From the NCBI GenBank assembly GCA_947629165.1, contig CANRCR010000002.1, positions 4,845-68,844 of the forward strand: a stretch of DNA of 64,000 bases. Direction: 5' to 3'. This DNA is from an uncultured Bacilli bacterium (lineage in GTDB: Bacteria; Bacillota_I; Bacilli_A; RF39; UBA660). Made by a program: the position numbers and the translations under genes. Below, piece after piece: positions 7,726 to 64,000 of the stretch (the stretch's first letter is position 1; each line of letters starts with the position of its first letter). The notes beneath the pieces were generated by a model, which searched no databases, had not been told where the DNA came from, and saw only the letters and a list, made by a program, of their open reading frames with translations.

Positions 7726-10533
7726 ATGGATAAAATCATAGTAAAAGGAGCTCGTGAAAACAATCTAAAAAATGTGGATATAGAGTTACCAAAGAATAAA
7801 TTAATTGTGATGACCGGAGTATCGGGAAGTGGAAAAAGTAGTTTAGCTTTTGATACGATTTATGCCGAAGGACAACGTCGTTATGTCGAAAGTTTATCTG
7901 CCTATGCGAGACAGTTTTTAGGGGGCACGGAAAAACCGGATGTCGATTCGATTGAAGGATTGTCACCTTCGATTAGTATCGATCAAAAGACGACTTCGAA
8001 GAACCCACGTTCGACCGTGGGAACAGTGACTGAGATTTATGATTATCTTCGTCTTTTGTTTGCTCGAATTGGAACCCCTTTCTGTCCAAATCATCATATT
8101 CCAATTACTTCTCAAAGCGTCGATGAAATTGTAAATAAGATTATGGAACGTGAAGTAGGAACAAAGTTAATTGTTTTATCACCGGTAGTGCATGGCGAAA
8201 AAGGAACGCATAAAGATCTTTTAGAAACTTTACGCAGTGAAGGATATATCCGAGTACGTATCAATGGCGAAATGATCGATTTAAGCGAAGAGGTCACTTT
8301 AGAGAAAAATAAAAAAGATAATATTGATGTCGTAATCGACCGAATTGTTCTAAAAGAAGATAGTCGTATGCGTTTAGCCGAATCAGTCGAAAATGCAATT
8401 AAACTTTCAAAAGGGAAAGTCGTAATCGATTTTGTCGGTGATAAAGAAGTGGTCTTTTCTGAAAACTTTGCTTGTCCATACTGTGATTTTTCTTTACCGG
8501 AATTAGAACCACGGATGTTTAGTTTTAATGCTCCTTTTGGTGCTTGTCCCGATTGTAAAGGACTCGGTGTGAAACTAAAAATGGATCCCGATTTAGTGGT
8601 ACCGGATGGTTCCAAGTCTTTAAATAAAGGAGCTATCAAGACATTGACGGATGATCCAGAAGCACTCGATTTTAAACGACTAGAATGTCTTTGCAAACAT
8701 TATAAAATCGATATGAATAAAGCCTTTGATAAACTTCCTTCAAAACAACAAGAATATATTCTATACGGAAGTGATGAACCGATTCATTTCCGTTATAATT
8801 CAAAAAGTGGAAACCTTTATAACAGTACAGATTACTACGAAGGTATTATTAATAACTTGGAACGAAGATATATGGAAACTTCTTCGACTTGGATTCGCGA
8901 ATGGTTAGAAAACTACATGATTGAAAATGTTTGTGAAACTTGTCACGGTTCGAGATTGAAAGATGATGTCTTATCCGTTTTAGTGGGTGGAAAAAACATC
9001 TACGAAGTAACGTGTATGAGTATTAAAGACTTAAATCATTTTTTCGATCATTTAAAATTAACGCCTTCGCAAAAAGAGATCGCAGATCTTCTAATTAAAG
9101 AAATAAAATCGCGTCTTGAATTCTTATCAAATGTAGGACTCGAATATTTAACACTCAGTCGTTCTGCTGGAACGCTTTCAGGGGGAGAAGCACAACGAAT
9201 CCGATTAGCAACTCAAATTGGCTCGAAGTTAACAGGTGTGCTCTATGTCCTCGACGAACCATCGATTGGACTTCATCAACGAGATAATGAAAAATTAATC
9301 GCTTCCTTAAAAGAAATGCGTGATTTAGGGAATACATTAATTGTAGTCGAACACGATACCGACACGATGTTAGCGAGTGACTATTTAGTCGATGTGGGTC
9401 CGGGTGCTGGAGAATACGGAGGCGAAATTGTTGCCAAAGGAACACCTGAAGAAGTGATGCAAAACGAAAATAGTATTACCGGAAGATACTTATCGGGAAA
9501 AGAAAAGATTGAAGTTCCTTCAAAAAGAAGAAAAGGAACAGGAAAGAAGATTGAAATTAAAGGAGCCGAAGAGAACAACCTTAAAAAAATTGATGTTACG
9601 ATTCCCCTTGGCACCATCACTTGTGTAACCGGTGTATCGGGAAGTGGAAAAAGTAGTCTAATCACGGAAGTACTTTGCAAAGCGACTAAAGTAAAAGTAT
9701 ATAAATCGAAAATTAAACCAGGTAAATACAAATCGATTAAAGGATTGGAAAATATTGATAAAATTGTTGAAATTACACAAAATCCAATCGGTAGAACCCC
9801 ACGCAGTAACCCCGCTACCTATACGGGCGTATTTGATGAAATAAGAGATCTTTTTACAAATACGAAAGAAGCAAAAATGTTAGGCTATGGAAAAGATCGT
9901 TTCTCTTTTAATGTAAAAGGAGGAAGATGTGAAGCCTGTCATGGAGATGGCGTTAAAAAAATCGAAATGCACTTTTTACCGGATGTTTATATTCCTTGTG
10001 AAGTGTGTCATGGAACAAGATATAACCAAGAGACCCTATCGATTAAATATAAAGGAAAAAATATTGCCGATGTCCTCGATCTCCGTGTTACGGAAGCCCT
10101 TAAATTCTTTGAAAATGTACCTCGAATTAAAAATAAATTACAAGTACTAGAAGATGTTGGAATTGGATATATTAAATTAGGACAAAGTGCTACGACATTG
10201 TCTGGAGGAGAAGCTGGACGAGTAAAACTTGCAAAAGAGTTACAAAAACGGCCTACCGGAAAATCACTCTTTGTTTTGGATGAGCCGACGACTGGATTAC
10301 ATTCGGAAGACATTAAAAGATTACTTGCAATATTTGAGAAAATAGTAGATAATAAAGATACAGTAGTCATCATTGAACACAACCTCGATGTTATCAAAGT
10401 AGCCGATTATATTATCGACTTAGGTCCAGAAGGGGGAGACGGAGGAGGAACCGTCGTAACGACCGGTACTCCTGAACAAGTAAGTAAAGTAAAAGAATCT
10501 TATACAGGACAATTCCTAAAGAAAGTGCTATAG
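7726..10533 (+). CDS. uvrA: Excinuclease ABC subunit A.
   Basis: Two ABC modules (GVSGSGKSSL twice, LSGGE signatures) and zinc-finger Cys pairs; 935 aa. Confidence 0.95.
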   Translation: MDKIIVKGARENNLKNVDIELPKNKLIVMTGVSGSGKSSLAFDTIYAEGQRRYVESLSAYARQFLGGTEKPDVDSIEGLSPSISIDQKTTSKNPRSTVGTVTEIYDYLRLLFARIGTPFCPNHHIPITSQSVDEIVNKIMEREVGTKLIVLSPVVHGEKGTHKDLLETLRSEGYIRVRINGEMIDLSEEVTLEKNKKDNIDVVIDRIVLKEDSRMRLAESVENAIKLSKGKVVIDFVGDKEVVFSENFACPYCDFSLPELEPRMFSFNAPFGACPDCKGLGVKLKMDPDLVVPDGSKSLNKGAIKTLTDDPEALDFKRLECLCKHYKIDMNKAFDKLPSKQQEYILYGSDEPIHFRYNSKSGNLYNSTDYYEGIINNLERRYMETSSTWIREWLENYMIENVCETCHGSRLKDDVLSVLVGGKNIYEVTCMSIKDLNHFFDHLKLTPSQKEIADLLIKEIKSRLEFLSNVGLEYLTLSRSAGTLSGGEAQRIRLATQIGSKLTGVLYVLDEPSIGLHQRDNEKLIASLKEMRDLGNTLIVVEHDTDTMLASDYLVDVGPGAGEYGGEIVAKGTPEEVMQNENSITGRYLSGKEKIEVPSKRRKGTGKKIEIKGAEENNLKKIDVTIPLGTITCVTGVSGSGKSSLITEVLCKATKVKVYKSKIKPGKYKSIKGLENIDKIVEITQNPIGRTPRSNPATYTGVFDEIRDLFTNTKEAKMLGYGKDRFSFNVKGGRCEACHGDGVKKIEMHFLPDVYIPCEVCHGTRYNQETLSIKYKGKNIADVLDLRVTEALKFFENVPRIKNKLQVLEDVGIGYIKLGQSATTLSGGEAGRVKLAKELQKRPTGKSLFVLDEPTTGLHSEDIKRLLAIFEKIVDNKDTVVIIEHNLDVIKVADYIIDLGPEGGDGGGTVVTTGTPEQVSKVKESYTGQFLKKVL

Positions 10534-10542
10534 GTGAGAAAC

Positions 10543-10974
10543 ATGGATGAAAAAATAGCAGTTACAAAAAAGAAAAGTATTCCGATATGCATCTTCGAAT
10601 GGGTAATTACGATGATTTGTTATGCACTCGTGTTAGCATTCGTATCTTGTTGTTTTAAATCCCTCTATATCGATCTTAATTATTATGGAATCTATGCACT
10701 GGTTGCGGTAGTAATTATCTACATATTAAATCGAACGATTAAACCGATTTTATTTGCTTTAACCCTACCGATTACAGGACTGACGTTAGGACTCTTTTAT
10801 CCTGTATTAAATGTAATTATTTTAAAGTTAACCGATTGGATTTTACTGGAACACTTTGAACTTACTAATTTATGGATTGCTTTCTTTATTGCAATATTAA
10901 TATCCGTAATGAACATTCTAATCGATGAAATATTGATTAAACCATTGATGAGGAGGATGAAAAAACATGAATAG
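10543..10974 (+). CDS. DUF360/YvlD-like small membrane protein (annotated in databases as phage holin family IV).
   Basis: IKPILFALTLPITGLTLGLFYPVLNVIIL matches the YvlD core IRPILILLTLPINILTLGLF. Four predicted TM helices; ATG with RBS AGGTGAG. Confidence 0.65.
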   Translation: MDEKIAVTKKKSIPICIFEWVITMICYALVLAFVSCCFKSLYIDLNYYGIYALVAVVIIYILNRTIKPILFALTLPITGLTLGLFYPVLNVIILKLTDWILLEHFELTNLWIAFFIAILISVMNILIDEILIKPLMRRMKKHE

Positions 10975-17003: not shown

Positions 17004-18515
17004 ATGAAAAAATGGATGTTTATTATTATTCTTGGAGGATTGTTACTAATTCCATTACCAACGTATGCAAAAGCCTTGCCTAAACTTTATTTCGAAGGGG
17101 ATCTATCTTCCTTAAAAACAAAAAAAGACAATACCAAAGTAACCATTCGTTATACGAGTGATTCCATAAACTTGGAAGGCTATGCAAAAATTAAATTACA
17201 GGGACATTCCTCATTAGATTATGAAAAAAAGAACTACAATATTGAATTCTACCAAGATGAAGATTTAACGAATCAACAAAAAGTTGATTTTGGATGGGGT
17301 GCTCAATCAAAATATTGTTTAAAAGCAAATTGGATTGATAAAACCCATGCACGTAATATTGTAACGGCACGTCTTGTTCAAGAAGTAGAGCAAAAGTATA
17401 ACTTACTAAACGACACACCTCATAATGGTACAATCGATGGTTTTCCGATTGAAATCTACTTAAACGATGAATTCTTAGGATTATACACATTAAATATTCC
17501 AAAAGGTGCATGGCAATTCAACATGGATGAGAATAATCCAAATCATATCGTCTTATCCGCCGAAGATTGGTCAAATGCAGCTTGTTTTAAAGAAGAAGCA
17601 AAAGATTTAAATAGTAGTTGGGCACTAGAAGTGGGCGAAGAAAATGAAGCAACGTTAGAAAAATTAAATCGTGTTATTCGCTTTGTTATCAATAGTTCAG
17701 ATCAAGAATTTAAAGAACAATTTTCATCTTATTTTAATCTTGATGCCGTCCTAAATTATTATGTTTTAACACAGTATGGTTTGCTATGTGATAACGTCGC
17801 TAAAAATATGTTATTAGTAACCTACGATGGAGAAATTTGGTATCCAGTACTCTACGATCTAGATACTGCCTGGGGATCTTCCTCGAGTGGTTTAGAAACC
17901 GTTCATTATGAAAGTACTAAAGATATTGCTAACAATCAATTATTTGAACGGTTAGAAAAAAATTTCCCAAATGAACTAGCCAATCGTTATTTTGCTTTAA
18001 AGAAAGAAATCTTTACGAAGGAACATGTACTAAATCTATTTAATGAATTTGAAAAAAGTATTCCTAAAGAATCTTTTCAGAAAGAACAAGAACGTTGGAC
18101 GGATATTCCCGGTTTTTCAGTAGAACAAATTGCCTCTTTCATTGATGTTCGAACACCGATAGTGGATAAATTTTTCTATGATCTATATACCGATGAAATA
18201 AAAGTAGAAGTAGTTTATGAAGAAAATAAAAATGGAACGGTAACGGCGCGCTTAGTAAGTAACCGCGAAGATGTTTCACTTTGGAAAAACAATAAAACTA
18301 GTTATGATTATGAACATACCTTTACGAAAGAAGGAACCTATACTTTTTATTACCAAGATGGAAATGGCAATCGGAATAGTATCACTGCCACGACGAGTGG
18401 GAATGTACTAACTTCGAGTAGTGAATCGTATGATTTTCTTTTACTAGGACTCTTTGGCATCCTTATTTTTAGTATTCTTTTCTACGGAATCAGAAGAAGA
18501 ATTCGCTATATATAA
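17004..18515 (+). CDS. CotH-family (atypical kinase fold) protein, secreted with C-terminal membrane anchor.
   Basis: Signal peptide MKKWMFIIILGGLLLIPLPTYA; CotH motifs CDNVAKNMLL and YDLDTAWG; C-terminal TM LLLGLFGILIFSILFYGIRRR. Confidence 0.65.
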   Translation: MKKWMFIIILGGLLLIPLPTYAKALPKLYFEGDLSSLKTKKDNTKVTIRYTSDSINLEGYAKIKLQGHSSLDYEKKNYNIEFYQDEDLTNQQKVDFGWGAQSKYCLKANWIDKTHARNIVTARLVQEVEQKYNLLNDTPHNGTIDGFPIEIYLNDEFLGLYTLNIPKGAWQFNMDENNPNHIVLSAEDWSNAACFKEEAKDLNSSWALEVGEENEATLEKLNRVIRFVINSSDQEFKEQFSSYFNLDAVLNYYVLTQYGLLCDNVAKNMLLVTYDGEIWYPVLYDLDTAWGSSSSGLETVHYESTKDIANNQLFERLEKNFPNELANRYFALKKEIFTKEHVLNLFNEFEKSIPKESFQKEQERWTDIPGFSVEQIASFIDVRTPIVDKFFYDLYTDEIKVEVVYEENKNGTVTARLVSNREDVSLWKNNKTSYDYEHTFTKEGTYTFYYQDGNGNRNSITATTSGNVLTSSSESYDFLLLGLFGILIFSILFYGIRRRIRYI

Positions 18516-51353: not shown

Positions 51354-52304
51354 ATGTTACAATTTGAAAAACCAGTCTATAAAATTACAGATTATGTAGA
51401 AAATAATTTTTTTGGAAAGTTTGAATTAGAACCATTAGAGCGCGGATTCGGAACCACTTTAGGAAATGCACTACGAAGAGTTATGTTATCATCACTTCCA
51501 GGAAGTGCAATTAGTAGTGTTAAAATTGAAGGTGTTTCACACGAATTCCAAACAATTGATGGAGTTATCGAAGACGTTGCACTTATCGTATTAAATTTAA
51601 AAGGAATTGTAATTAAGAATCATTCGAACGAACCAAAGACGATTCGTTTGAACGCTTCAGAAGAAGGAGTCGTAACGGCAGGAATGATCGAACATGATGC
51701 CGATATTGAAATTATGAATCCGGATCAAGAAATTGCAACCTTAGCAAAAGGCGGAAAATTAGTTATGGAAATGACCGTAACTAATGGCCGTGGATACGTA
51801 AGAAGTGAAGAAAACAAAAAATTACTTGATAACAAAAAAATGGGAACGATTGCCATTGATTCCCTATACTCTCCTATCGAGCGTGTATCTTATGAAGTAG
51901 AACCTGCTCGTGTCGGACAAAATGAAAACTATGACCGTTTAATTTTAAATGTATGGACAAACGGTTCAATGAAACCAGAAGAAGCAGTAGCATTAGCTGC
52001 TCGTATCTTAATCGAACACTTTGAATTGTTGACCGACTTAAGTAAGATTGCAGATATGACAGGACTTATGATTGAAAAGACAGAAGATCCAAAAGTAAAA
52101 GCATTAGAGACTACAATCGAAGATTTAGACTTCTCAGTACGTGCTTACAACTGCTTAAAGAGAGCTGGAATTCATACCTTACAAGATTTAGTTAATAAAT
52201 CAGAAAACGATATGATGAAGATACGTAATCTAGGAAAGAAATCACTAAAAGAAGTATTAGACAAGATTCGTGAACTTGGACTAGCATTACGTGAAGATGA
52301 CTAG
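51354..52304 (+). CDS. rpoA: DNA-directed RNA polymerase alpha subunit.
   Basis: RpoA NTD/CTD sequence; 316 aa. Confidence 0.95.
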   Translation: MLQFEKPVYKITDYVENNFFGKFELEPLERGFGTTLGNALRRVMLSSLPGSAISSVKIEGVSHEFQTIDGVIEDVALIVLNLKGIVIKNHSNEPKTIRLNASEEGVVTAGMIEHDADIEIMNPDQEIATLAKGGKLVMEMTVTNGRGYVRSEENKKLLDNKKMGTIAIDSLYSPIERVSYEVEPARVGQNENYDRLILNVWTNGSMKPEEAVALAARILIEHFELLTDLSKIADMTGLMIEKTEDPKVKALETTIEDLDFSVRAYNCLKRAGIHTLQDLVNKSENDMMKIRNLGKKSLKEVLDKIRELGLALREDD

Positions 52305-52732: not shown

Positions 52733-52771
52733 AGAGTGTTATCGAATTAGGCCGATAGAATGAGGTGGACG

Positions 52772-53647
52772 ATGACAAAAGTGGAATTGACTTTACTCGA
52801 TCGAAATCAATTAATGGGAAAAAGTTGTTTAAAAGTTATTAATTCCTATGGCAGAAAGGCATCCATTACTGATTTAGCGATTTTAATGGGTGGTTTTGTT
52901 TCTTGTGACGACTATACGAGAGAAGAAAAAGATCAATCGATGGCTTGTGGAAAATATTGGACACGTACGATTTCTCCGGAACAGAAAGTAACCTATATCG
53001 ATAGCAACAGTTTAGATTGGGAATCGGAGATGTACTATCGTAACCGGTCCATTCGTCCTATGATAGAAAAAATAGAGTGGACGAGTGCTTTAAAATCAAA
53101 AGTAAAAATCGATTCACTTGGAATTCCAGAAATAAATTTGGGAAGTTATCCGCAACAAATCGTCGATGATAAACAAAATACCGTTTTAGAGTTCCTTTAC
53201 CATGCCGGCTATTTGATGAAAACAAAAAAACATTACACTTTTGATGACATAGAACATCACCGGGATTTCGAAACCGGTTTTACCTCTGTTATCTATCCGA
53301 GTTACCAATTAGAAAACGATACCTTTATCCGTGTATTAGGACATCCCGATGCTGGGTTTTATCTATCGAATAGTAAATCGGTCGAAATAGGGAAACCGTA
53401 CTGGATAAAAATAAGCCCTGTCGCTTGGCTTGTAGACGAAACTACAGGTATATTAATTTCCAAACGAAATTTATTATCTGGAATTCATTTTGCTAAAAAG
53501 AATAGCCAAGTAAACACTTTCGAAGACAGTTTCTTAAAAGAATACCTAGATACCTATATGCAAAAAGAATTGCTAATAGAAATATCTCCGACCTCTATTT
53601 TGGAAGAAAATCCGAAATTAAAACAGTTTATTTATCGAAAATACTAA
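52772..53647 (+). CDS. Paralog 1 of a tandem six-member uncharacterised family.
   Basis: Shared family motifs LTLL, GIRP-like, WIKISPVAWLVD, SKRNLLSG, C-terminal KQFIYRK. Start could instead be 52760. Confidence 0.6.
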   Translation: MTKVELTLLDRNQLMGKSCLKVINSYGRKASITDLAILMGGFVSCDDYTREEKDQSMACGKYWTRTISPEQKVTYIDSNSLDWESEMYYRNRSIRPMIEKIEWTSALKSKVKIDSLGIPEINLGSYPQQIVDDKQNTVLEFLYHAGYLMKTKKHYTFDDIEHHRDFETGFTSVIYPSYQLENDTFIRVLGHPDAGFYLSNSKSVEIGKPYWIKISPVAWLVDETTGILISKRNLLSGIHFAKKNSQVNTFEDSFLKEYLDTYMQKELLIEISPTSILEENPKLKQFIYRKY

Positions 53648-53672
53648 AGAACAAATGAAAGGAAGTGCTCGT

Positions 53673-54548
53673 ATGAACAATATCACCTTAACCCTTTTAA
53701 CATTAAAACAAGCCGATCGAACGGATGGTCTTCAAGTACTTCGTAAAGCAGGACCTGCTTTTCATACCGATTTAAGTATTTTGAACAGTGTATATCGCGT
53801 AAGAGAAAACTATTATACCAATGCTTTTGAAGACGAGCCTTTTGACTATTTCAGTTCCTTTTTTACGAAAACAGAAGATGGTGATTTAGATGTCTATTGT
53901 TATGATGAGATACAATCAACGGCCGTTTATCGTTGGGCAACCGATCGTGGAATTCGTCCGGTAATTAATGATCCCAAACTCTACGATGCCCTTGTTCAAA
54001 AGAGAAAACCAGGACGAAATGGAACCTACGAAGTGGAATTTGGAGTTTATCCACAGTACTTTGCTTCCATCGAAACAGGTAATGAGCTAGAGATGCGATA
54101 TGAATGTAATGACTTAATTACGACTGATAAAAAATATACGATTATGCATCCAACAGGATCAGGAGAAATGCACCCAGTCGCTTTGGAAGAATATCCCGAA
54201 TACGAATACCAAAATGATTATTATATCCGGTACACCGCATTTGATGAAAGTGCTGTCTTTGCTAGCAATGGTCAAGCTGTTTTGAGAGATAATGATTATT
54301 GGATTAAAGTAAGTCCTGTGCTTTGGTTACTAGATGAAGAAACTAAATTACTTATTTCTAAACGTAGTTTAGTTTCGGGAGTTCGTTTTAATAGTAAACC
54401 ATATTCCGGTGATTTTGAAACTACGGAAGTCAAACAATTTATAGACACCTATCTTACTCCGAATCTTTTTGATAAATCTGAACCGAAAGATCGGGTACTA
54501 AAACAAAATGAATCGCTAAAACAGTTTATTTATCGTAAAAATATATAA
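53673..54548 (+). CDS. Paralog 2 of the six-member family.
   Basis: NITLTLL; GIRPVIND; YPQY; WIKVSPVLWLLDEETKLLISKRSL; NESLKQFIYRK. RBS AAAGGAAG precedes ATG 53673; 53655 also possible. Confidence 0.6.
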   Translation: MNNITLTLLTLKQADRTDGLQVLRKAGPAFHTDLSILNSVYRVRENYYTNAFEDEPFDYFSSFFTKTEDGDLDVYCYDEIQSTAVYRWATDRGIRPVINDPKLYDALVQKRKPGRNGTYEVEFGVYPQYFASIETGNELEMRYECNDLITTDKKYTIMHPTGSGEMHPVALEEYPEYEYQNDYYIRYTAFDESAVFASNGQAVLRDNDYWIKVSPVLWLLDEETKLLISKRSLVSGVRFNSKPYSGDFETTEVKQFIDTYLTPNLFDKSEPKDRVLKQNESLKQFIYRKNI

Positions 54549-54564
54549 AAATGAAGGAATACTT

Positions 54565-55464
54565 ATGGAACCAAATATAAAATTGATTTGCCTATCAAAA
54601 AGTCGATTATCGAGTTATCCCAACTCGTCCTTAATAAGAACAGGACGTTGTTTTAGTACGGATTTAAATGCTTTATTAGGAACGGTAAAAGCAAACGATA
54701 GCGAATCCTATCAAGACGAACCACTTCGTATGGTTGGAAGATATTGGCTTACGACGCCCGATGATGATAGTGATGTCTATACTTCGGCTGCTACAATTAG
54801 GGATAGTGAAGAATTTGCCCCTACCTATCGTTGGTCAAAAAAATCGGGTATACGTCCTGTTATCGATAATAAAGAAATTTATGATGAATTATTTTATCAA
54901 CGACAAAGTGGAAGAAATGGAACCTACGAAGTGGCCTATGGCACCTATCCACAGTATTGTGAAACTATTGAAAAAGAGAAAATACTCGAAGAAAAATATC
55001 ACGAAGGAAAACTCGAAATAACCGATAAAGTGTATACCTTTCAAAACACGAAATATCTAGGAGAAAACGATGATTTTGTCCCCCAAGCATATAAACAATA
55101 TTATTATCAAGGAAACTACTATATTCGGTTTGTTGCTCCCCAAAATTTAAACTTTTTGCTTTCAAATAAACAACCCATATACCAAGGTACACCCGTCTGG
55201 ATAAAAGTAAGTCCTGTTATGTGGTTCTTGGATGAAGAATTTGAGCGATTAGTATCCAAACGAATTTTAATAAGTGGTATTCAATTTAATCGTAATCCTT
55301 ATTTTGGAGATTTTGAAAAAACCATTTTATATAGATATATGAATATGATTTTAAATGCGGATCTCTTTGATAAAAGACTAAATCAAAAGAATAAAGTTAT
55401 TTCAGAAAATGAAAGTTTAAAAAAATTGATTTATCGTAAATTACCTTATAAGAAAGAGGATTGA
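54565..55464 (+). CDS. Paralog 3 of the six-member family.
   Basis: YWLTT; GIRPVIDN; YPQY; WIKVSPVMWFLDEE; SKRIL; NESLKKLIYRK. Confidence 0.6.
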   Translation: MEPNIKLICLSKSRLSSYPNSSLIRTGRCFSTDLNALLGTVKANDSESYQDEPLRMVGRYWLTTPDDDSDVYTSAATIRDSEEFAPTYRWSKKSGIRPVIDNKEIYDELFYQRQSGRNGTYEVAYGTYPQYCETIEKEKILEEKYHEGKLEITDKVYTFQNTKYLGENDDFVPQAYKQYYYQGNYYIRFVAPQNLNFLLSNKQPIYQGTPVWIKVSPVMWFLDEEFERLVSKRILISGIQFNRNPYFGDFEKTILYRYMNMILNADLFDKRLNQKNKVISENESLKKLIYRKLPYKKED

Positions 55465-55466
55465 GT

Positions 55467-56351
55467 ATGAGTGAAATCGATTTAACACTTTTATCTAAAA
55501 AGGAAGTATTTGGTCCCGGCGGTTTAGATATATTTAGAAAGCATTCAGCAAAAGCTTATCTTACTGATTTTGGATATGTTACAGGAGCCGAGAATACCCA
55601 TTACTATACGGAAGATGAAACCGTTTCCGAGATGGATGATCGACCCCTTCGAATTACGGCTGATTACTGGCTACGTTCTTCGAATCCTTACGGATATCCC
55701 CATTTTGTTTATCTTAATGGTAGCATCGACAGTATCTATGGCGGATTGTTAACTAAAGGAATTCGTCCGATAATTCAAAATCCTACCTGCTTTGATGAAT
55801 GGATGTCAAATCTTACTCCCGAGGAATTACAAAAAGGCGAATTTATTTACGGAACTTACCCACAATGGTTGGTTCCAACGGAAAAGGCCTGGTTGCTCGA
55901 AAGAAATTTTAACCGTGGACTTTTAGATAAAACAAGAAAGACTTATACCATCAACGGCTATAAAAAAGAACTATTTTACCCGTTATCGATAAATGAATAC
56001 AGTTTCGAAGAAGAAAAATATGTGCGGGTTGTTTGTGAACACTATTCACCTTATAACTTTTTGTGTGATTCCAATTATCAAATGATCGATCGAAACATTG
56101 CTTGGATAAAAGTAAGTCCTGTCTATTGGATGATTGATTTTCCAAGTAAAACCCTCGTATCGAAACGCGTTTTATTAGGAGGAATTCCTTTTTATAAAAC
56201 AAGTAAAAAAGAATTTGCGTCGTCCGAAATAAAAACGTTTTTAGATAGATACATGAGTGCTGACTTATTTGACCAAGCAAGATACTCGAAAGATGGAATC
56301 TTATCTCAAAATGAAACTTTAAAAAAGTTAATTTACCGAAAAAAACTTTAA
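55467..56351 (+). CDS. Paralog 4 of the six-member family.
   Basis: MSEIDLTLL; YWLRSS; GIRPIIQN; YPQW; WIKVSPVYWMID; SKRVLLGG; NETLKKLIYRK. Confidence 0.6.
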   Translation: MSEIDLTLLSKKEVFGPGGLDIFRKHSAKAYLTDFGYVTGAENTHYYTEDETVSEMDDRPLRITADYWLRSSNPYGYPHFVYLNGSIDSIYGGLLTKGIRPIIQNPTCFDEWMSNLTPEELQKGEFIYGTYPQWLVPTEKAWLLERNFNRGLLDKTRKTYTINGYKKELFYPLSINEYSFEEEKYVRVVCEHYSPYNFLCDSNYQMIDRNIAWIKVSPVYWMIDFPSKTLVSKRVLLGGIPFYKTSKKEFASSEIKTFLDRYMSADLFDQARYSKDGILSQNETLKKLIYRKKL

Positions 56352-56367
56352 GAAAGGAGCAATAAAT

Positions 56368-57249
56368 ATGGATGTGAATTTAGGCTTAATAACGACACGT
56401 TATATTAGACCTGGAAAAAATCAATTAGAAATCTTTTCCAAATATCATGCGGTATCTTCTGCAACCGATTTATATCTCCTTACCGGTGGTCATTATTATA
56501 AGACGGGTTCTAGGGATCCAGATAAAAGAATGTTAAGTGCTTATTGGTTAGCTAATTCCGATAGTGATGGCGATGTTTTAATTATGAAAAATGACACCCC
56601 AAATACGTTTGCAGCAATTCGAGGTGATGCTCGTGTTGGTATACGTCCTATGTTTCAAGCGGATAGCGAATTGATCGAAAGAATCCAACCGGAAGAACCG
56701 AATCAAGATGGAGTTTTCGAAGTGGAATTTGGAAATTATCCCCAATTTCTTGAAAATGCGTACACTTCGATAGAATTAGAAGATGCGTATAAGAAAGACG
56801 GATTATGTGACACCCAAAAAACGTATACTTTTAATCAAGAAAATATTTCGATAAGCCAAAAAGGAATAACTCCCTTTAGTCCTGCTGTATATCACGAATA
56901 CGAATATAATAATCAAAAATATATCCGGTTTATTTCCTACGGAAACAACGAAAGTAGAGAAAGTGTCTATGGTAGGTCCTTAGAACGAAAAATTTATTGG
57001 CTTAAAGTAAGCCCTGTTATTTGGTTAATGGATCCTTCTACACAAATACTCGTATCGAAAAGAACTTTACTTGCTGGAATGCGTTTTAATAGAAAGTATT
57101 ATCGCGGAGACTTTTTATCTACGGAAATAAAAGCATATTTAGATCAGTATATGACCAAAGACTTATTTACGACGGAGGATGTTCCTAAAAATCGTATTTT
57201 AAGTGAGAACGATATGCTTAAAAATTTTGTTTATCGAAAGAAAGTGTAA
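56368..57249 (+). CDS. Paralog 5 of the six-member family.
   Basis: YWLANS; GIRPMFQ; YPQF; WLKVSPVIWLMD; SKRTLLAG; NDMLKNFVYRK. Confidence 0.6.
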   Translation: MDVNLGLITTRYIRPGKNQLEIFSKYHAVSSATDLYLLTGGHYYKTGSRDPDKRMLSAYWLANSDSDGDVLIMKNDTPNTFAAIRGDARVGIRPMFQADSELIERIQPEEPNQDGVFEVEFGNYPQFLENAYTSIELEDAYKKDGLCDTQKTYTFNQENISISQKGITPFSPAVYHEYEYNNQKYIRFISYGNNESRESVYGRSLERKIYWLKVSPVIWLMDPSTQILVSKRTLLAGMRFNRKYYRGDFLSTEIKAYLDQYMTKDLFTTEDVPKNRILSENDMLKNFVYRKKV

Positions 57250-57262
57250 AAGAAGGAAAGAT

Positions 57263-58150
57263 ATGGAAGATATTGATTTAACTTTATTAGAAGGATGCCA
57301 TGTAAGAGAAGGTAAACGCAAATTAGATGTTTTAAGAAAATATGGTATTTCAGCCGTAAATACAGACTTTTGCTTTTTAACGGGCTCGATAACATATGCA
57401 GGAATGAAACCAGATGAACCGGATGGATTTGACAAGGTGGGAGCCTACTGGTTACGGACTTCCGATAGTTATGGCGATAGTTATTATGTCGAAAATGATC
57501 GTGTCGAAAATAATGCGTTTCATGGAGATCGTTCATTTGGAATACGTCCAATTATCAATAATCCTATGTTGTATGATCGCCTGGAAGAAGAAAAAGAACC
57601 CGATGTGAAAGGAACTTTTTCTGTTGCCTTTGGCGAATATCCTCAATTTGCCGTTTCTAAAGACATAGAAGAAAAACTTGAAAGCTGTTATCAAAAGAAT
57701 CAAATAAAAACTACCAAAAAAAATTATGTTTACGATATTGGGTATGATGACTTTGATCCTCATACCCTCGAAGAGTACTATTTTGAAGATGAAAAATACG
57801 TTCGTATGGTTCCAAGGTATAATCGTAACCAGTTTTATCTTTCAAACGGGGTAGCCATGGCGGAAAATCAAGTTTTTTGGATAAAAGTAAGTCCGGTTAT
57901 TTGGTTATTAGATGAGAAGAAAAAACTACTTGTTTCCAAACGTTGTTTAGTAGGAGGGATTGCTTTTAATAACACCTATTATTACGGTTGCTTTGCCAAG
58001 ACAAATATAAAAAAGTATATGGATACCTATTTAACACCGAATATTTTTGATTCAATCGATTTAAAGAAAGATCAAATCTTATCGGAAAACGAAGCCTTAA
58101 AAAGTTTTGTTTATCGAAAAAATTTATTTCAAACGAGTAAGAGAAGATGA
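57263..58150 (+). CDS. Paralog 6 of the six-member family.
   Basis: MEDIDLTLL; YWLRTS; GIRPIINN; YPQF; WIKVSPVIWLLD; SKRCLVGG; NEALKSFVYRK. ATG 57263 with RBS AAGAAGGAAAG; the longer ORF from 57203 overlaps paralog 5. Confidence 0.6.
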   Translation: MEDIDLTLLEGCHVREGKRKLDVLRKYGISAVNTDFCFLTGSITYAGMKPDEPDGFDKVGAYWLRTSDSYGDSYYVENDRVENNAFHGDRSFGIRPIINNPMLYDRLEEEKEPDVKGTFSVAFGEYPQFAVSKDIEEKLESCYQKNQIKTTKKNYVYDIGYDDFDPHTLEEYYFEDEKYVRMVPRYNRNQFYLSNGVAMAENQVFWIKVSPVIWLLDEKKKLLVSKRCLVGGIAFNNTYYYGCFAKTNIKKYMDTYLTPNIFDSIDLKKDQILSENEALKSFVYRKNLFQTSKRR

Positions 58151-59366: not shown

Positions 59367-60122
59367 ATGAAAGTTTTAATCACCGGAGCATCGAGTGGAA
59401 TTGGAAGAGATATGGCCAAATATTTAAGTAGTCAAGGCCACGAACTATTTTTAGTTGCGCGTGATAAAGCGAAATTAGAAGAATTACAGCAATCACTTAA
59501 AACAAGGACGACCATTATTGTTATGGATCTAACCGTCACAAGTAATGTGAAATCACTTTATGTCGTATGTAAAAATGAAAATATTGACCTTTTAATTAAC
59601 AACGCTGGCTTTGGCTTATGCGGTAATTTTACGGAGACCGATAATAATCGTGAACTCGAAATGATTGATTTAAATATTCGGGCAGTACATCTCTTAACCA
59701 AACTATTCTTAAAAGATATGAAACGTCGAAACCAAGGCTATATTTTAAACGTAGCTTCTTCGGCTGCTTTCTATCCAGGACCATTAATGGCTACTTACTA
59801 TGCTACTAAGGCCTATGTATTAAGATTAACCCAAGCTATTTACTATGAATTAAAAAAAGAAAAATCGAAAGTAGTAGTATCTTGTCTTTGTCCAGGACCA
59901 GTCGATACCAACTTTAATAAAGTGGCTAACGTTCATTTTTCAGTAAAACCCATGAAAAGTGAAAAGGTAGCAAAATATGCGATTGATCAACTTTTAAACA
60001 AACATAAATTGGTAATTGTTCCTGGATTTAAAATGAAATGTGCGCATTTCTTTAGCCGTTTTGTAAGTGATAAGACATTAATGCGTTTTGCCTATCGAAT
60101 TCAAAAGAAAAAAATGGAATAA
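59367..60122 (+). CDS. Short-chain dehydrogenase/reductase (SDR) family oxidoreductase.
   Basis: TGASSGIG cofactor motif; catalytic YxxxK (YYATKAY). Confidence 0.85.
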   Translation: MKVLITGASSGIGRDMAKYLSSQGHELFLVARDKAKLEELQQSLKTRTTIIVMDLTVTSNVKSLYVVCKNENIDLLINNAGFGLCGNFTETDNNRELEMIDLNIRAVHLLTKLFLKDMKRRNQGYILNVASSAAFYPGPLMATYYATKAYVLRLTQAIYYELKKEKSKVVVSCLCPGPVDTNFNKVANVHFSVKPMKSEKVAKYAIDQLLNKHKLVIVPGFKMKCAHFFSRFVSDKTLMRFAYRIQKKKME

Positions 60123-60612: not shown

Positions 60613-61278
60613 ATGGAAGAAAAAATATTAGATGAATTAGCAACTTTAGTATTACAACAGAAAATCGATATCGAAAGATATCCACAATTAAAACAAGATA
60701 TGAAAGACTTCGCCTATCAACAGTATGAAAGTACGCAAAACCATTACGAAGTAAAGTCGATGGGAACGAGAAAAGACTTAGATAATACGGTGGTGGATGG
60801 CTATTTCCAAGCCCACTACTTCGAAAGTTTAGGTCAATCTTGGAGGCCACTCGGCTATTTGAAAAAAGAATATCAACAAAAAGAAGAGGAAGGATTAAAT
60901 GAGTTTCTTGCCCCTTATTGTTTTGCAAGTGATCAGGAAAAAGAAGATTTTGATAAAGAACTAAAACATCAAATACTATCTATTTTAGCCTACGAAGGAA
61001 GTGGCACCATCGAAGAAGTGGTAGGAGAAGCTTACTTTCGGACAATGCTATTAACAGGCAAGGATTGGGTAACGGATCAACAAGAAGTAAAAAAGACTTA
61101 CTGGAAATATGCTGGAAAACCAGTTCCACTCGCAGAAGTTTATCAAATGAAACTAAATACGAGTGTAGAAAAACTAACCCAAGATGGACTTTGTACCCTA
61201 TTAGGGGATAACGGAGTAAAAAGAGACGTCGATTTAACGTACGAAGGTAGACAATACGTATATCATCCTAAAAGATAA
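60613..61278 (+). CDS. Hypothetical protein (221 aa).
   Basis: ORF followed by terminator hairpin AAGCAAT ATA ATTGCTT TTTT. Confidence 0.45.
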   Translation: MEEKILDELATLVLQQKIDIERYPQLKQDMKDFAYQQYESTQNHYEVKSMGTRKDLDNTVVDGYFQAHYFESLGQSWRPLGYLKKEYQQKEEEGLNEFLAPYCFASDQEKEDFDKELKHQILSILAYEGSGTIEEVVGEAYFRTMLLTGKDWVTDQQEVKKTYWKYAGKPVPLAEVYQMKLNTSVEKLTQDGLCTLLGDNGVKRDVDLTYEGRQYVYHPKR

Positions 61279-61325
61279 AGAAGCAATATAATTGCTTTTT
61301 TCTTTTGAAAAGAAAGAAAAAAGGA

Positions 61326-61354
61326 TTGAGTATCCCCGGCTTTTCGAGTATAAT
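61326..61354 (+). promoter_or_regulatory. Sigma-A-type promoter for ecfA1.
   Basis: TTGAGT (61326-31), 17 nt spacer, TATAAT (61349-54). Confidence 0.5.
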
Positions 61355-61381: not shown

Positions 61382-62191
61382 ATGAAGAGTATCATTCGCA
61401 TTACAAATCTAGATTTTTCTTATGAAAAAGAGAAAGTATTCTCTTCCTTTTCGATGGAAATTAAAGAAGGCTGCTTTACAACTATTATAGGACCGAACCA
61501 AAGCGGAAAAACAACCTTAATTAAATTGATGGCAGGATTACTTCCTAATCAAGAAAGTGTCATTTTAGAACATCAATACATCGAATCCGATAAAATGGAA
61601 AATGCAGCGCAAGAATTAGGCGTAGTGCTTTCCGATATTGAAAATAAATTTTTATTTAACGAAGTCTATCAGGAACTTTGTTATCCATTAGAAAACTTAA
61701 ACTACTCCAAAGAAGAAATCGAAAAAAGAATTCAAGAAATAAGTGATCTTTTGGAATTAGAACCTTTACTCGATAAACGAATCGAACGATTGACTTCGAC
61801 TGAAAAAAAGAAAGTGTTCTTTGCCCTTGCTCTTTTACACCATCCTAAACTTTTACTATTAGATAATCCTTTTGCAGGACTTACTGAAAAAGAACGCGAA
61901 AAGATGCGAAAACTCTTAAAAAAACTAAATCAAAAAGAAGCGATGACCATTGTTTTAGCGACTAACAATTTGACCGATATTTTAGAAAGTGATTATGTCT
62001 ATGTGCTAAATAAAGGAAAAATTTGTATGGAAGGAGAACCTTTGTCGGTTTTACAAGAAGAAAAAATCTTAAATCAAATCGGTTTAGAACTTCCATTTAT
62101 GGTAGATCTTTCACTAAAACTCAAGTTTTACGAAGTGTATGATCGAATTGAGACAGATATGGATCGGATGGTGAATGATCTATGGAAATAA
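61382..62191 (+). CDS. ecfA1: ECF-transporter-type ABC ATPase EcfA1 homolog, with degenerate catalytic motifs.
   Basis: Walker A GPNQSGKTT is intact. Signature is LTSTEKKK (not LSGGQ), Walker B LLLLDNP (no catalytic Glu), H-loop position has Asn. Synteny rplQ...ecfA-ecfA-ecfT-truA. ATG 61382 with RBS AAAAAGGTG. Confidence 0.7.
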   Translation: MKSIIRITNLDFSYEKEKVFSSFSMEIKEGCFTTIIGPNQSGKTTLIKLMAGLLPNQESVILEHQYIESDKMENAAQELGVVLSDIENKFLFNEVYQELCYPLENLNYSKEEIEKRIQEISDLLELEPLLDKRIERLTSTEKKKVFFALALLHHPKLLLLDNPFAGLTEKEREKMRKLLKKLNQKEAMTIVLATNNLTDILESDYVYVLNKGKICMEGEPLSVLQEEKILNQIGLELPFMVDLSLKLKFYEVYDRIETDMDRMVNDLWK

Positions 62192-62994
62192 GATTAACCA
62201 ATTTAAATTATCGCCATCACGAACAAAATATCTTTACGCGTTTAAATCTTACGTTAGAAGGACCTAAAATAATCGGTATTATGGGAGAGAAAAAGACACA
62301 ACTATTAAAGTTAATCGATGCCATAAATCTTCCTAATAAAGGTTCGATTTACTTAGACGATGAAAAATTACAAAAAGATAATCTTACTAGTTTTCGTCGT
62401 AAGGTAGCGTTAATAACGCAAGAAGTAAAAGATCAATTCTTTGAAAGTACCGTCGAAGATGAAATGAAATTTTTAGTATCCGTCATGCATTATAATGCCA
62501 AAGATTTGACGAAACGAATGAGAGATGCACTAAAGATGGTAGGACTAGACGATACGTATCTTTCCAAAAATATGAGCACCCTTTCGTCAGGCGAACAAAA
62601 ATTAATTCAGTTAGCGGTAAGTTTACTTTATAATCCGAAAGTGATTTTGTTAGATGATCCGATGATCTATCTTGATTATCCAAGAAAAAAGAACTTAATT
62701 CGCCTATTAAAACGATTAAAAGAAAAATACGACAAGACCATTATCATTGCTAGTAACGATAGTAATTTCTTATATCCCCTCGTCGATGAAGTAGTAATTC
62801 TTCATCACCAAAACAGGGTTATTCAAGGAAGTAGTGAAGAAATCTTCCAAGATGTAAAAATGTTAGAGAAACAGCATATTGAGATTCCCTATCTCGTAGC
62901 CTTTACCGAAAAGGCGAGAGCAAAAGGCGTCCGATTATCGTACCATAAGGATATTCGCGACATTATAAAGGACATTTATAAACATGTGGATTGA
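62182..62994 (+). CDS. ecfA2: EcfA2 homolog with degenerate Walker A/B and H-loop.
   Basis: Walker A GIMGEKKT (second Gly replaced by Lys); Q-loop ITQE present; signature LSSGEQ; Walker B ILLDDP; H-loop Asn. Confidence 0.65.
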   Translation: MEIRLTNLNYRHHEQNIFTRLNLTLEGPKIIGIMGEKKTQLLKLIDAINLPNKGSIYLDDEKLQKDNLTSFRRKVALITQEVKDQFFESTVEDEMKFLVSVMHYNAKDLTKRMRDALKMVGLDDTYLSKNMSTLSSGEQKLIQLAVSLLYNPKVILLDDPMIYLDYPRKKNLIRLLKRLKEKYDKTIIIASNDSNFLYPLVDEVVILHHQNRVIQGSSEEIFQDVKMLEKQHIEIPYLVAFTEKARAKGVRLSYHKDIRDIIKDIYKHVD

Positions 62995-63625
62995 TCGAAG
63001 TTGGATGAAAAACATTCACCCGGTAAGTAAGATATTAAGTAGTATTCTTATGGTCGCGACAATACTACTGATCGATAAAGCATTTTACTTACTTATCGTC
63101 CATGTACTTTTCTATTTCTTAGTCGAAGAACATCCGTTATTAAGAAAATGTATTATGTTATCGCTTGTTTTTAACGTATTTGCTGTTTTTTTACCAATCT
63201 GGTTAGGACTTAATAAACTGATTCTTTTAATTGCCTATTTCGGATTTATCTTGAAAGATAGTACTTTAGAAAAGGGAATGTATTTGATTGAACAGATATT
63301 ACCCGTAAATAGTAATATGGCAATAACTTTGACGAATGGACTCTACTTATTACGCCTTATCAAGACGAACTATCTTCAATTAGAACAAATTCAAAAAAGC
63401 TATGGTCTAGAAAAGAATCTACCACTTCAAATAAAAATGTTAAAACAAGCTAAAAAACAGGCAAAACTAGAAATGAACGAAGTTAAAATACTACAAAAAT
63501 TACGCTTTTATGGAGCCTATCCACGAAGAACCAAAATAAAACAATATCCTTTTGAAGTATGGGATCGAAACTACTTGATGAGTCATCTTTTATTCTTGAT
63601 TCTATCGATCATAATGGGGAGGTAA
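62984..63625 (+). CDS. ecfT: Putative ECF transporter T component (short, divergent).
   Basis: Polytopic membrane protein in the canonical ecfT position before truA; 213 aa (shorter than typical EcfT). Confidence 0.5.
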   Translation: MWIDRSWMKNIHPVSKILSSILMVATILLIDKAFYLLIVHVLFYFLVEEHPLLRKCIMLSLVFNVFAVFLPIWLGLNKLILLIAYFGFILKDSTLEKGMYLIEQILPVNSNMAITLTNGLYLLRLIKTNYLQLEQIQKSYGLEKNLPLQIKMLKQAKKQAKLEMNEVKILQKLRFYGAYPRRTKIKQYPFEVWDRNYLMSHLLFLILSIIMGR

Positions 63626-63627
63626 AA

Positions 63628-64000
63628 ATGCAACGTTATTTAATTACATTTTCTTACGATGGGACTAACTTCGCAGGATTTCAAAAACAACCGGGATTAA
63701 GAACCGTCGAACAAGAACTAGAAGAAGCACTCACGTTCATTAATCAAAAAAAGAAAACATCCCTCGTCGCATCGGGAAGAACCGATGCAAAGGTACACGC
63801 TTTACGACAAAAGGCGCACTTTGATTTAGCAGTAACGATTACCGATAATAAACTAAAAAGAGCACTGAACAGCAATATAAGTGATGAAATTCATGTCTTG
63901 GAGGTAGAAAAGAAAGAACCTTCGTTTCATGCTCGTTACCAAGTCAAAGAAAAGAAATATTGCTATTTACTGAATGTAGGAGAATATAATCCACTACTTC
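63628..64000 (+). CDS. truA: tRNA pseudouridine(38-40) synthase TruA, N-terminal fragment; runs off window end.
   Basis: MQRYLITFSYDGTNFAGFQKQPG ... GRTDAKVHA catalytic Asp region. Confidence 0.85.
   Translation, partial: MQRYLITFSYDGTNFAGFQKQPGLRTVEQELEEALTFINQKKKTSLVASGRTDAKVHALRQKAHFDLAVTITDNKLKRALNSNISDEIHVLEVEKKEPSFHARYQVKEKKYCYLLNVGEYNPLL

Follow-up and report, generated by a model that had tools for sequence, protein, structure and literature searches.

Loss of canonical catalytic motifs in both ATPases of a purifyingly selected ECF locus in uncultured gut Bacilli

Energy-coupling factor (ECF) modules are regarded as obligate ATP-hydrolysing motors of vitamin uptake, which are essential in many Firmicutes and are pursued as antibiotic targets; in their cycle, the S-component is expelled when ATP binds, and the module is reset by hydrolysis. 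Here we describe an ecfA1-ecfA2-ecfT locus (A1, A2 and T in the following) in a stretch of 64,000 nucleotides from an uncultured Bacilli bacterium of the GTDB lineage RF39 (contig CANRCR010000002.1, forward strand; the whole stretch is referred to as the window), in which both ATPases have lost canonical catalytic motifs. Because the catalytic residues are lost at both nucleotide sites, selection is strong, and T has been dropped in many related species while the ATPases were kept, the three proteins now probably do something other than normal ATP-driven transport.

That micronutrients can be taken up in ECF-type systems without ATP-driven energising has a precedent in solitary S-components and ECF-independent vitamin carriers (for example BioY alone), which rely on facilitated diffusion and metabolic trapping; such systems lack the A/T module altogether, whereas in the window it is kept and constrained. 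The known counterparts of the locus are the group-II EcfA-EcfA'-EcfT modules of L. brevis (4HUQ, 4RFS) and L. delbrueckii (5JSZ, 8BMR, 8BMS). In canonical ECF complexes, coupling helices 2 and 3 (CH2 and CH3) of EcfT terminate at their C-terminal ends in X-Arg-X motifs that anchor into EcfA and EcfA', respectively (PMC10368641), and the ATPases carry a Q-helix motif X-P-D/E-X-Q-Phi, which follows the Q-loop, together with an acidic groove residue to which the EcfT Arg binds (PMC6828968). Single E169Q or E'171Q mutants of the model module show neither ATPase activity above background nor transport, and the doubly mutated '2EQ' module (EcfA E169Q / EcfA' E171Q, PDB 8BMS) binds ATP and closes its dimer without hydrolysis (PMC10368641). 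A natural loss of the Walker-B Glu (often replaced by Asp) and of the H-loop His in one NBD is known from heterodimeric ATP-binding cassette (ABC) proteins such as TM287/288, CFTR, TAP1/2 and those of the BmrCD type, in which ATP continues to bind at the degenerate site, which keeps the dimer together; for the degenerate site of TM287/288, the exchange of Glu for Asp was reported to block hydrolysis (PMC3971661). Full-text literature searches returned no account of ECF modules with degenerate catalytic sites, nor any of ECF systems in RF39.

The A1-A2-T locus occupies the standard Firmicute slot of the housekeeping ecfAA'T module. The positional orthologue of ecfA1 (A1, 269 aa, 61382..62191, + strand, like all features below), identified by open reading frame (ORF) call, NCBIfam, PDB-chain alignments and an AF2 model, is followed by that of ecfA2 (A2, 270 aa, 62182..62994), whose start overlaps the A1 stop by 10 nt, and by a diverged and shortened ecfT (T, 213 aa, 62984..63625), whose start in turn overlaps the A2 stop by 11 nt. 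As in the group-II modules, the three genes lie between rplQ and truA, and allowing for an insert after rplQ, the group-II order rplQ-ecfA-ecfA'-ecfT-truA-rplM-rpsI is found here and is kept in about 70 related species. The best NCBIfam match of A1 is ECF_ATPase_1 (TIGR04520, 6.9e-52) and that of A2 is ECF_ATPase_2 (TIGR04521, 8.7e-46); unlike the group-II ATPases, both score at about half of the curated equivalog cut-offs (176.5 bits versus 315 for A1, 156.2 bits versus 330 for A2). The AF2 model of A1 (pLDDT 89.5) superimposes on EcfA1 chains over its full length, including the group-II C-terminal helices, with a TM-score of 0.90 to 8bms_A and 6zg3_F (0.88-0.90 when 7nnt_A is included), and the sequence alignment to EcfA1 likewise runs to the C-terminal LWQ. 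A1 thus shares with group-II EcfA1 the full length to the C-terminal LW(K/Q), the fold, the C-terminal helices and an acidic groove residue, E98. The doubt raised in a preliminary description of the window, namely that these genes might not be ECF components at all, is dispelled by the NCBIfam matches, the A1 fold, the canonical gene order and the homology of T to EcfT (see below).

The motif positions were set by phmmer alignment to solved EcfA, EcfA' and CbiO chains, for A1 those of C. perfringens CbiO (3GFO), EcfA2 (4MKI_B) and L. delbrueckii EcfA1 (8BMR/8BMS/5D3M). In A1, the Walker A GPNQSGKTT (61490..61516) is intact, with K43 found in 118 of 118 homologue clusters. The Q-loop and Q-helix read LSDIENKF (61628..61651): the Q-loop Gln is replaced by Ser84, and in the degraded Q-helix (D-I-E-N-K-F) both the Pro and the Gln are missing. 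The signature LTSTE (61790..61804) aligns to LSGGQ or LSFGQ of the solved chains and replaces LSGGQ/E. In the Walker B (LLLLD161-N162, 61850..61867), Asn162 stands in the column of the catalytic Glu, which is E169 in L. delbrueckii EcfA1 and Gln in the engineered mutant chain 8bms_A; among the A1 homologues, this column holds Asn in 89 of 118 clusters and Glu only in the 3 canonical ones. The H-loop is ATNN (61958..61969), aligned to ATHD/ITHD, with Asn in place of His. The Walker-B Asp161 and the groove acid E98 (corresponding to D105 of L. delbrueckii) are each kept in 116 of 118 clusters, and the C-terminal helices (LELPFMVDLSLKL…DMDRMVNDLWK, 62084..62188) are the most conserved part of the family. 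Of the canonical catalytic set, A1 therefore retains only the Walker A and the Walker-B Asp; ATP binding is predicted from the unaltered P-loop and the Mg-binding Asp, albeit without catalytic residues. 

In A2, the P-loop is GIMGEKKT (62275..62298), aligned to G-H-N-G-S-G-K-S, so that the Gly before the Lys is itself replaced by Lys. The Q-loop Gln is retained, as is the signature LSSGE (62581..62595), which in the composite arrangement faces the A1 P-loop, and most of the Q-helix is still recognisable (E-V-K-D-Q-F in the window, P-x-E-Q-F-F in most relatives). The Walker B (ILLD-D, 62644..62658; ILLDDP aligned to ILDEP) carries Asp for the catalytic Glu, and the H-loop ASND (62749..62760, aligned to VSHN) carries Asn for His. 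Of the canonical catalytic set, A2 has thus kept no more than its Q-loop Gln, its signature and its Walker-B Asp. Both GIMGEKKT and ILLDDP occur in four of four population variants of A2 from different samples, and the nearest species has GAA (Glu) at the Walker-B codon at which the window has GAT (Asp). Since the four variants agree and the nearest species carries GAA, these motif states are real and fixed; a sequencing error behind the Asp-Asp and Lys-Lys-Thr is ruled out by the four independent variants. The Asp-Asp is specific to the window species, the single exception among 39 T-bearing species, of which 38 have Asp-Glu; the Asn of the H-loop is shared by 37 of the 39 T-bearing relatives. 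The T-bearing species have a P-loop of the form GxxGx[N/Y/K]K[T/S] (Lys in 39/39, Thr or Ser in 39/39), a Q-loop Gln in 39/39, a D-loop Asp in 38/39 and a signature of the form L-S-x-G/S-E. All the motif states of A1 and A2 that had been noted from the sequence alone (a normal Walker A, LTSTE, Asn for Glu and Asn for His in A1; the Gly to Lys change, Asp for Glu and the H-loop Asn in A2) recur in the same alignment columns, and comparison with L. delbrueckii, with EcfA/EcfA' of L. brevis and with C. perfringens CbiO shows a genuine absence of the catalytic Glu and His rather than a shift in their position.

Arranged as in the known dimers, the A1 P-loop and its Mg-binding Asp161 would face the intact A2 signature LSSGE and the A2 D-loop in composite site I, which would be preserved for Mg-ATP binding and dimer closure while lacking the catalytic base, the Q-loop Gln and the H-loop His, and which would be a naturally occurring counterpart of the engineered E169Q trap. 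At composite site II, the A2 P-loop GxxGxKKT, the Walker-B Asp-Asp and the H-loop Asn would face LTSTE of A1, and this site is degraded on both faces. The earlier view that both composite sites look impaired is a fair reading of these alignments, because either single Glu to Gln mutant already abolishes ATPase activity and transport in the model module (PMC10368641). As in the 2EQ module, the catalytic Glu has given way to an amide or a shorter side chain in both subunits; unlike in that mutant, the state found here is natural, fixed and selected, and it is accompanied by further changes in the H-loops, signature, P-loop and T anchor. The loss of the Walker-B Glu and the H-loop His also resembles that in heterodimeric ABC proteins, but these keep one fully canonical site, whereas the window module has none: site I is devoid of Glu, His and Gln, and site II combines a deviant P-loop, Asp and Asn with a degenerate partner signature. 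Moreover, in the heterodimeric proteins it is the degenerate site that is faced by a degenerate signature, while in the window the signature opposite the non-catalytic A1 site is intact and that opposite the A2 site is degenerate; the comparators are also exporters, and the window module is of the ECF importer type. By analogy, its mode of working would seem closest to that of the 2EQ mutant, or else to that of the degenerate site in heterodimeric ABC exporters, yet without any consensus site. Compared with the group-II modules themselves, A1 differs in the missing catalytic Glu, H-loop His and Q-loop Gln and in its signature, and A2 in its P-loop, its Asp-Asp and its missing His, whereas the signature, Q-loop and most of the Q-helix of A2, as well as the CH3 Arg of T, are held in common.

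The putative T component had been described as short, and at 213 aa it indeed falls about 40-50 aa below the ~250-265 aa of canonical EcfT. Neither Pfam (CbiQ, PF02361) nor NCBIfam gave a match for the window T or three of its relatives, even at E-values up to 10, and a profile of 25 T relatives found no EcfT in the PDB. As these direct searches returned no EcfT match, the homology was established by profile-profile comparison through the T of the canonical sister lineages: hhalign of the window T family against this T gave 98.8 % probability (E 4.7e-17) over 215 columns and the full length, and the sister-lineage T itself matches both Pfam CbiQ (1e-25) and EcfT of L. brevis (1e-37). The window T, which also has the genomic position of EcfT, is a highly diverged EcfT. 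Its family is tiny; exhaustive phmmer among 1.84 billion representatives yielded 19 relatives, all of 209-217 aa except for a repetitive match of 3,100 aa and a fragment of 82 aa, and returned no full-length canonical EcfT, and word-indexed protein searches with T (as a single sequence or a profile) gave only 2-4 matches.

Of the two X-Arg-X anchors of EcfT, only one is found in the window T. The CH2 anchor reads K-S-Y-G (63395..63406) instead of the canonical S-R-G, with Tyr for Arg, while the Arg of the CH3 anchor is retained (L-R-F-Y-G, 63500..63514); the same combination occurs in every window-like T. This matches the state of the ATPases, in which the Q-helix motif is lost in A1 and retained in A2 (PxEQFF), and PxEQFF is kept where T is present and lost where T is absent. 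The N-terminal half of CH3 (63410..63466) is rich in Lys and Gln instead of being hydrophobic, its mean hydropathy being -0.92 in the degenerate clade, with 35 % charged residues, compared with +1.23 in canonical T. EcfT has degenerated along with the ATPases: Tyr has taken the place of the CH2 Arg, which docks into EcfA1, and charged residues have replaced hydrophobic ones in the half of CH3 that faces the S-component.

The distribution of this state was investigated by a pattern scan of GTDB species representatives with A1 peptide patterns, which gave 77 loci, 73 of them with this A1-A2 pair. The degenerate state is found in about 65 GTDB species of uncultured gut Bacilli, belonging at least partly to the order RF39, and in a protein search the A1 state was common to more than 110 clusters formed at 90 % identity. 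The carriers are metagenome-assembled genomes of uncultured gut 'Bacilli' or 'Tenericutes', Ca. Scybalousia, Ca. Faecenecus and Clostridium sp. CAG:451, of which Ca. Faecenecus, the one named member whose GTDB placement has been published, has been assigned to the order RF39 (PMC8035907); the order RFN20, also considered, was dropped on this ground. Several stages can be told apart. Canonical motifs together with a T of 250-254 aa (stage 0) are found in L036, L039 and L044-046; canonical lineages branch at the base of the neighbour-joining tree built from six flanking proteins. About 40 window-like species (stage 1) have a T of 212-222 aa and an A1 with intact P-loop, signature LT(N)SE and neither Q-loop Gln nor H-loop His. 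In 28 of 71 species (stage 2), A2 abuts truA, T is missing, and no ORF resembling it lies within ±10 kb; the motifs of T-less species have decayed further, as in the CAG:451 group with GANNSYKTL in A1 and GITGENSKE in A2. Finally, a few T-less lineages have shortened A1 and A2 (stage 3). Dollo counting on neighbour-joining trees, from the full data and 60 bootstrap replicates, gives 4-8 independent losses of T (mode 5-6), through which A1-A2 persisted. The window would accordingly illustrate one stage of a clade-wide trajectory from a canonical module through a catalytically degenerate one with short T to a retained A1-A2 dimer from which T has been lost.

Several loci are of particular note. 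Four long-branch loci of uncertain tree placement (L064, L065, L076 and L079) have an A1 of ~233-238 aa and an A2 of 226-257 aa, which abuts truA, and the P-loop region of A2 is deleted in L076 and L079. An intermediate is seen in L043 (9992-12352), whose A1 already has the signature LTNGQ and keeps DEA and ITH; its A2 lacks the Q-loop Gln and has SQD at the H-loop, and its T (254 aa) has both Arg anchors. In the subclade of L041 (2337-4541) and L042 (9962-12217), to be compared with their sister species L049, L038 and L040, A2 has a perfect GxxGxGKT P-loop and Asp-Glu, in L042 also the His; the A1 signature is wholly lost in this subclade (LYSFL/LFLFL), T has neither Arg anchor in L041 and L042, and T is absent from the three sister species. 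This subclade is a second, differently ordered route of decay.

Ratios of nonsynonymous to synonymous substitution (dN/dS), calculated by the Nei-Gojobori method within eight species groups, range from 0.03 to 0.21 for A1, from 0.008 to 0.23 for A2 and from 0.06 to 0.20 for T, compared with 0.07-0.14 for the flanking truA. A1, A2 and T are thus under purifying selection, at a constraint similar to that on the neighbouring truA and short-chain dehydrogenase/reductase (SDR) genes. In the nucleotide-binding domain (NBD) core, omega is 0.01-0.08 in the T-bearing degenerate species versus 0.07 in the canonical relatives; once T is lost, constraint on the core is relaxed (0.14-0.27) and that on the C-terminal domains holds (0.06-0.16), and A1-A2 of T-less species as a whole remain at 0.1-0.25. 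At all stages, the most conserved segments are the C-termini of A1 (LGLELPFMVDLSLKL…DMDRMVN.LWK) and of A2 (…VKLSYHKDIRDLIKDVYKHV). One could regard the three genes as decaying relics, or incipient pseudogenes, kept only because they act as spacers or couple translation within the ribosomal-protein operon, and the progressive loss of motifs, the shortening of T, its repeated deletion and the shortened A1 and A2 of L064, L065, L076 and L079 might be taken in this sense. Such a reading is hardly credible and is already contradicted by the data: about 70 species have intact reading frames of constant length, all groups tested, the T-less ones among them, have a dN/dS of 0.01-0.25, comparable to that of truA, the replacement residues are themselves conserved (Asn162, the Tyr of the CH2 anchor, LTNSE), and the C-terminal domains are nearly invariant. 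A pseudogene status of A1-A2-T is thereby ruled out by dN/dS.

With catalytic residues lost at both sites and EcfT co-degenerated, the module would most likely be an ATP-binding-dependent switch or scaffold, in which hydrolysis is absent or extremely slow, and which could gate or dock partners instead of powering uphill vitamin import. We lean modestly towards this interpretation of the window A1-A2-T, as a functional and tightly constrained complex without a canonical two-site ATP-hydrolysis cycle on its way to the T-less state. The data show the motif states, the orthology, the homology of T, the purifying selection and the repeated loss of T; we infer that ATPase activity is lacking, ATP binding at the A1 site is retained and coupling to the S-component is altered. 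Several points weigh against it. We infer the loss of ATPase activity from motifs only. The Walker-B Glu of A2 is kept in 38 of 39 T-bearing relatives together with the Q-loop Gln and the P-loop Lys-Thr, so the clade may retain a weak one-site ATPase; the A2 Asp of the window might still support slow hydrolysis, and the role of the H-loop His could in part be taken over by Asn. A motor that still works would be equally compatible with the very strong constraint on the NBD cores. A Foldseek search with the AF2 model of T (from a 4-sequence alignment, pLDDT 77.6) gave no significant match, CbiQ chains being the only ones above a TM-score of 0.4 (0.41-0.43, probability ~0.4, not significant). In addition, species that have lost A1 and A2 altogether are invisible in our survey, because the loci were found by A1 peptide patterns.

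The same retained residues of A2 could be explained by a working ECF motor that runs on a single weakened site, with site I permanently occupied by ATP in a structural role, as in CFTR, TAP or TM287/288-type proteins, and slow hydrolysis at site II (A2) sufficing for the uptake of micronutrients in the nutrient-rich gut. There is good precedent for heterodimeric ABC proteins in which one site is degenerate (PMC3971661), and A2 of the T-bearing relatives keeps, besides Glu, Gln and Lys-Thr/Ser, the D-loop Asp and the T-binding Q-helix PxEQFF; the CH3 Arg that anchors T to A2 is likewise retained, and the NBD cores are as constrained as in the canonical relatives. We nevertheless hold such a motor to be rather doubtful, as site II itself departs from the consensus, with N, Y or K for the P-loop Gly, the His lost in 37 of 39 species and LTNSE or LTSTE as partner signature, and in the window species the Glu is lost too. 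Furthermore, E169Q in EcfA alone is sufficient to abolish ATPase activity and transport in the model module (PMC10368641), the hydrophobic half of CH3 for docking of the S-component is gone, and T is dispensable in 28 related species.

That the ATPases outlive T can also be read more radically than in the switch or scaffold interpretation. EcfA1-EcfA2 might be a pseudo-ATPase heterodimer that binds or senses nucleotide and functions independently of transport and of EcfT, largely by means of its near-invariant C-terminal domains and the site formed by the A1 P-loop and the A2 signature; we put this forward tentatively, as the less likely reading. If it were true, the window species would stand at the last membrane-tethered stage before T is discarded, as happened 4-8 times among its relatives, and this would be the first ABC-importer motor exapted into a soluble non-catalytic protein.

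A divergence of the locus would also be allowed if a second canonical ECF module or other vitamin transporters were encoded elsewhere in the genome, leaving the ancestral copy free to adopt a specialised or regulatory role. In some Firmicutes, such as Listeria, several ECF modules or alternative subunits are present (PMC9973259). We found no other ECF-type ATPase in the 64-kb window, and the ±10 kb around the module in 77 related loci contained none either, the one exception being an unrelated ABC ATPase in L023; RF39-type genomes are small (1.5-1.9 Mb; PMC7301438). Since the strong purifying selection on the present copy would also be left unexplained, we consider this explanation unlikely. 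The extra ATPase of L023 (17219-18118, +, 299 aa) is weakly A1-like (65 bits) and is the sole one of ABC type found near these loci. Within the window, the only other ABC match is a 935-aa ORF at 7726-10533, which is probably UvrA. No S-component-like gene was found in the window, the small multi-transmembrane ORFs of the 77 related loci include no S-component but only the T family and one unrelated family, and an Rfam scan of the window gave no riboswitch or other RNA pointing to an S-component.

In this clade, the equivalent of hydrolysis-dead mutations has been fixed and the proteins are kept under strong selection, which amounts to a natural experiment on what ATP binding alone does in an ECF complex, and which bears on a possible second, transport-independent role of EcfAA'. 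Metabolic reconstructions of RF39-type gut bacteria, which are auxotrophs with small genomes, are affected as well, because the presence of an ECF transporter is now read as the presence of vitamin uptake.

Upstream of the locus, rpoA (51354..52304, +; phmmer to rpoA of L001, with the Pfam RNA_pol_A families) and rplQ, encoding ribosomal protein L17 (52326..52670, +; from its translation, with Ribosomal_L17 in L001), serve as synteny markers, and downstream the 5' part of truA (63628..64000, +) runs off the window. In the window and contigs with identical proteins, the order is rpoA, rplQ, six paralogous ORFs, DUF3048, SDR, DUF212, a 221-aa ORF, A1, A2, T, truA, a 114-aa ORF, rplM and rpsI, and in L002 and L006 synteny likewise extends to rplM-rpsI. 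The A1 ATG is preceded by an AAGGTG Shine-Dalgarno sequence and, further upstream, by a promoter-like element (TTGAGT-17-TATAAT, 61326..61354, +), which is a consensus match only (10/12 in a consensus scan). An A/T-rich hairpin with a T-run lies just before this element (at ~61281-61308), and together the two suggest that A1-A2-T-truA may have its own promoter. 

The 221-aa ORF directly 5' of A1 (60613-61278, +) has no Pfam or NCBIfam match and occurs only in the window lineage and L006. The SDR gene (adh_short, 59367-60122, +) separates rplQ from A1 in almost all species of the clade. Most of them, T-less ones included, have it immediately 5' of A1, and in the canonical relatives it lies 1-2 kb upstream. 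Between rplQ and the DUF3048 gene, six tandem paralogous ORFs of ~293-316 aa (52760-58150, +) represent a lineage-specific expansion of an unknown family in the ribosomal/rpoA operon region; the two that were tested have no Pfam match, and L006, the closest relative, has two copies only. Elsewhere in the window, a 'Phage_holin_4_2' family ORF with four transmembrane segments (10534-10974, +) overlaps the start of lgt, and a gene for a CotH-kinase-family protein (17004-18515, +) is present in this otherwise small-genome gut bacterium.

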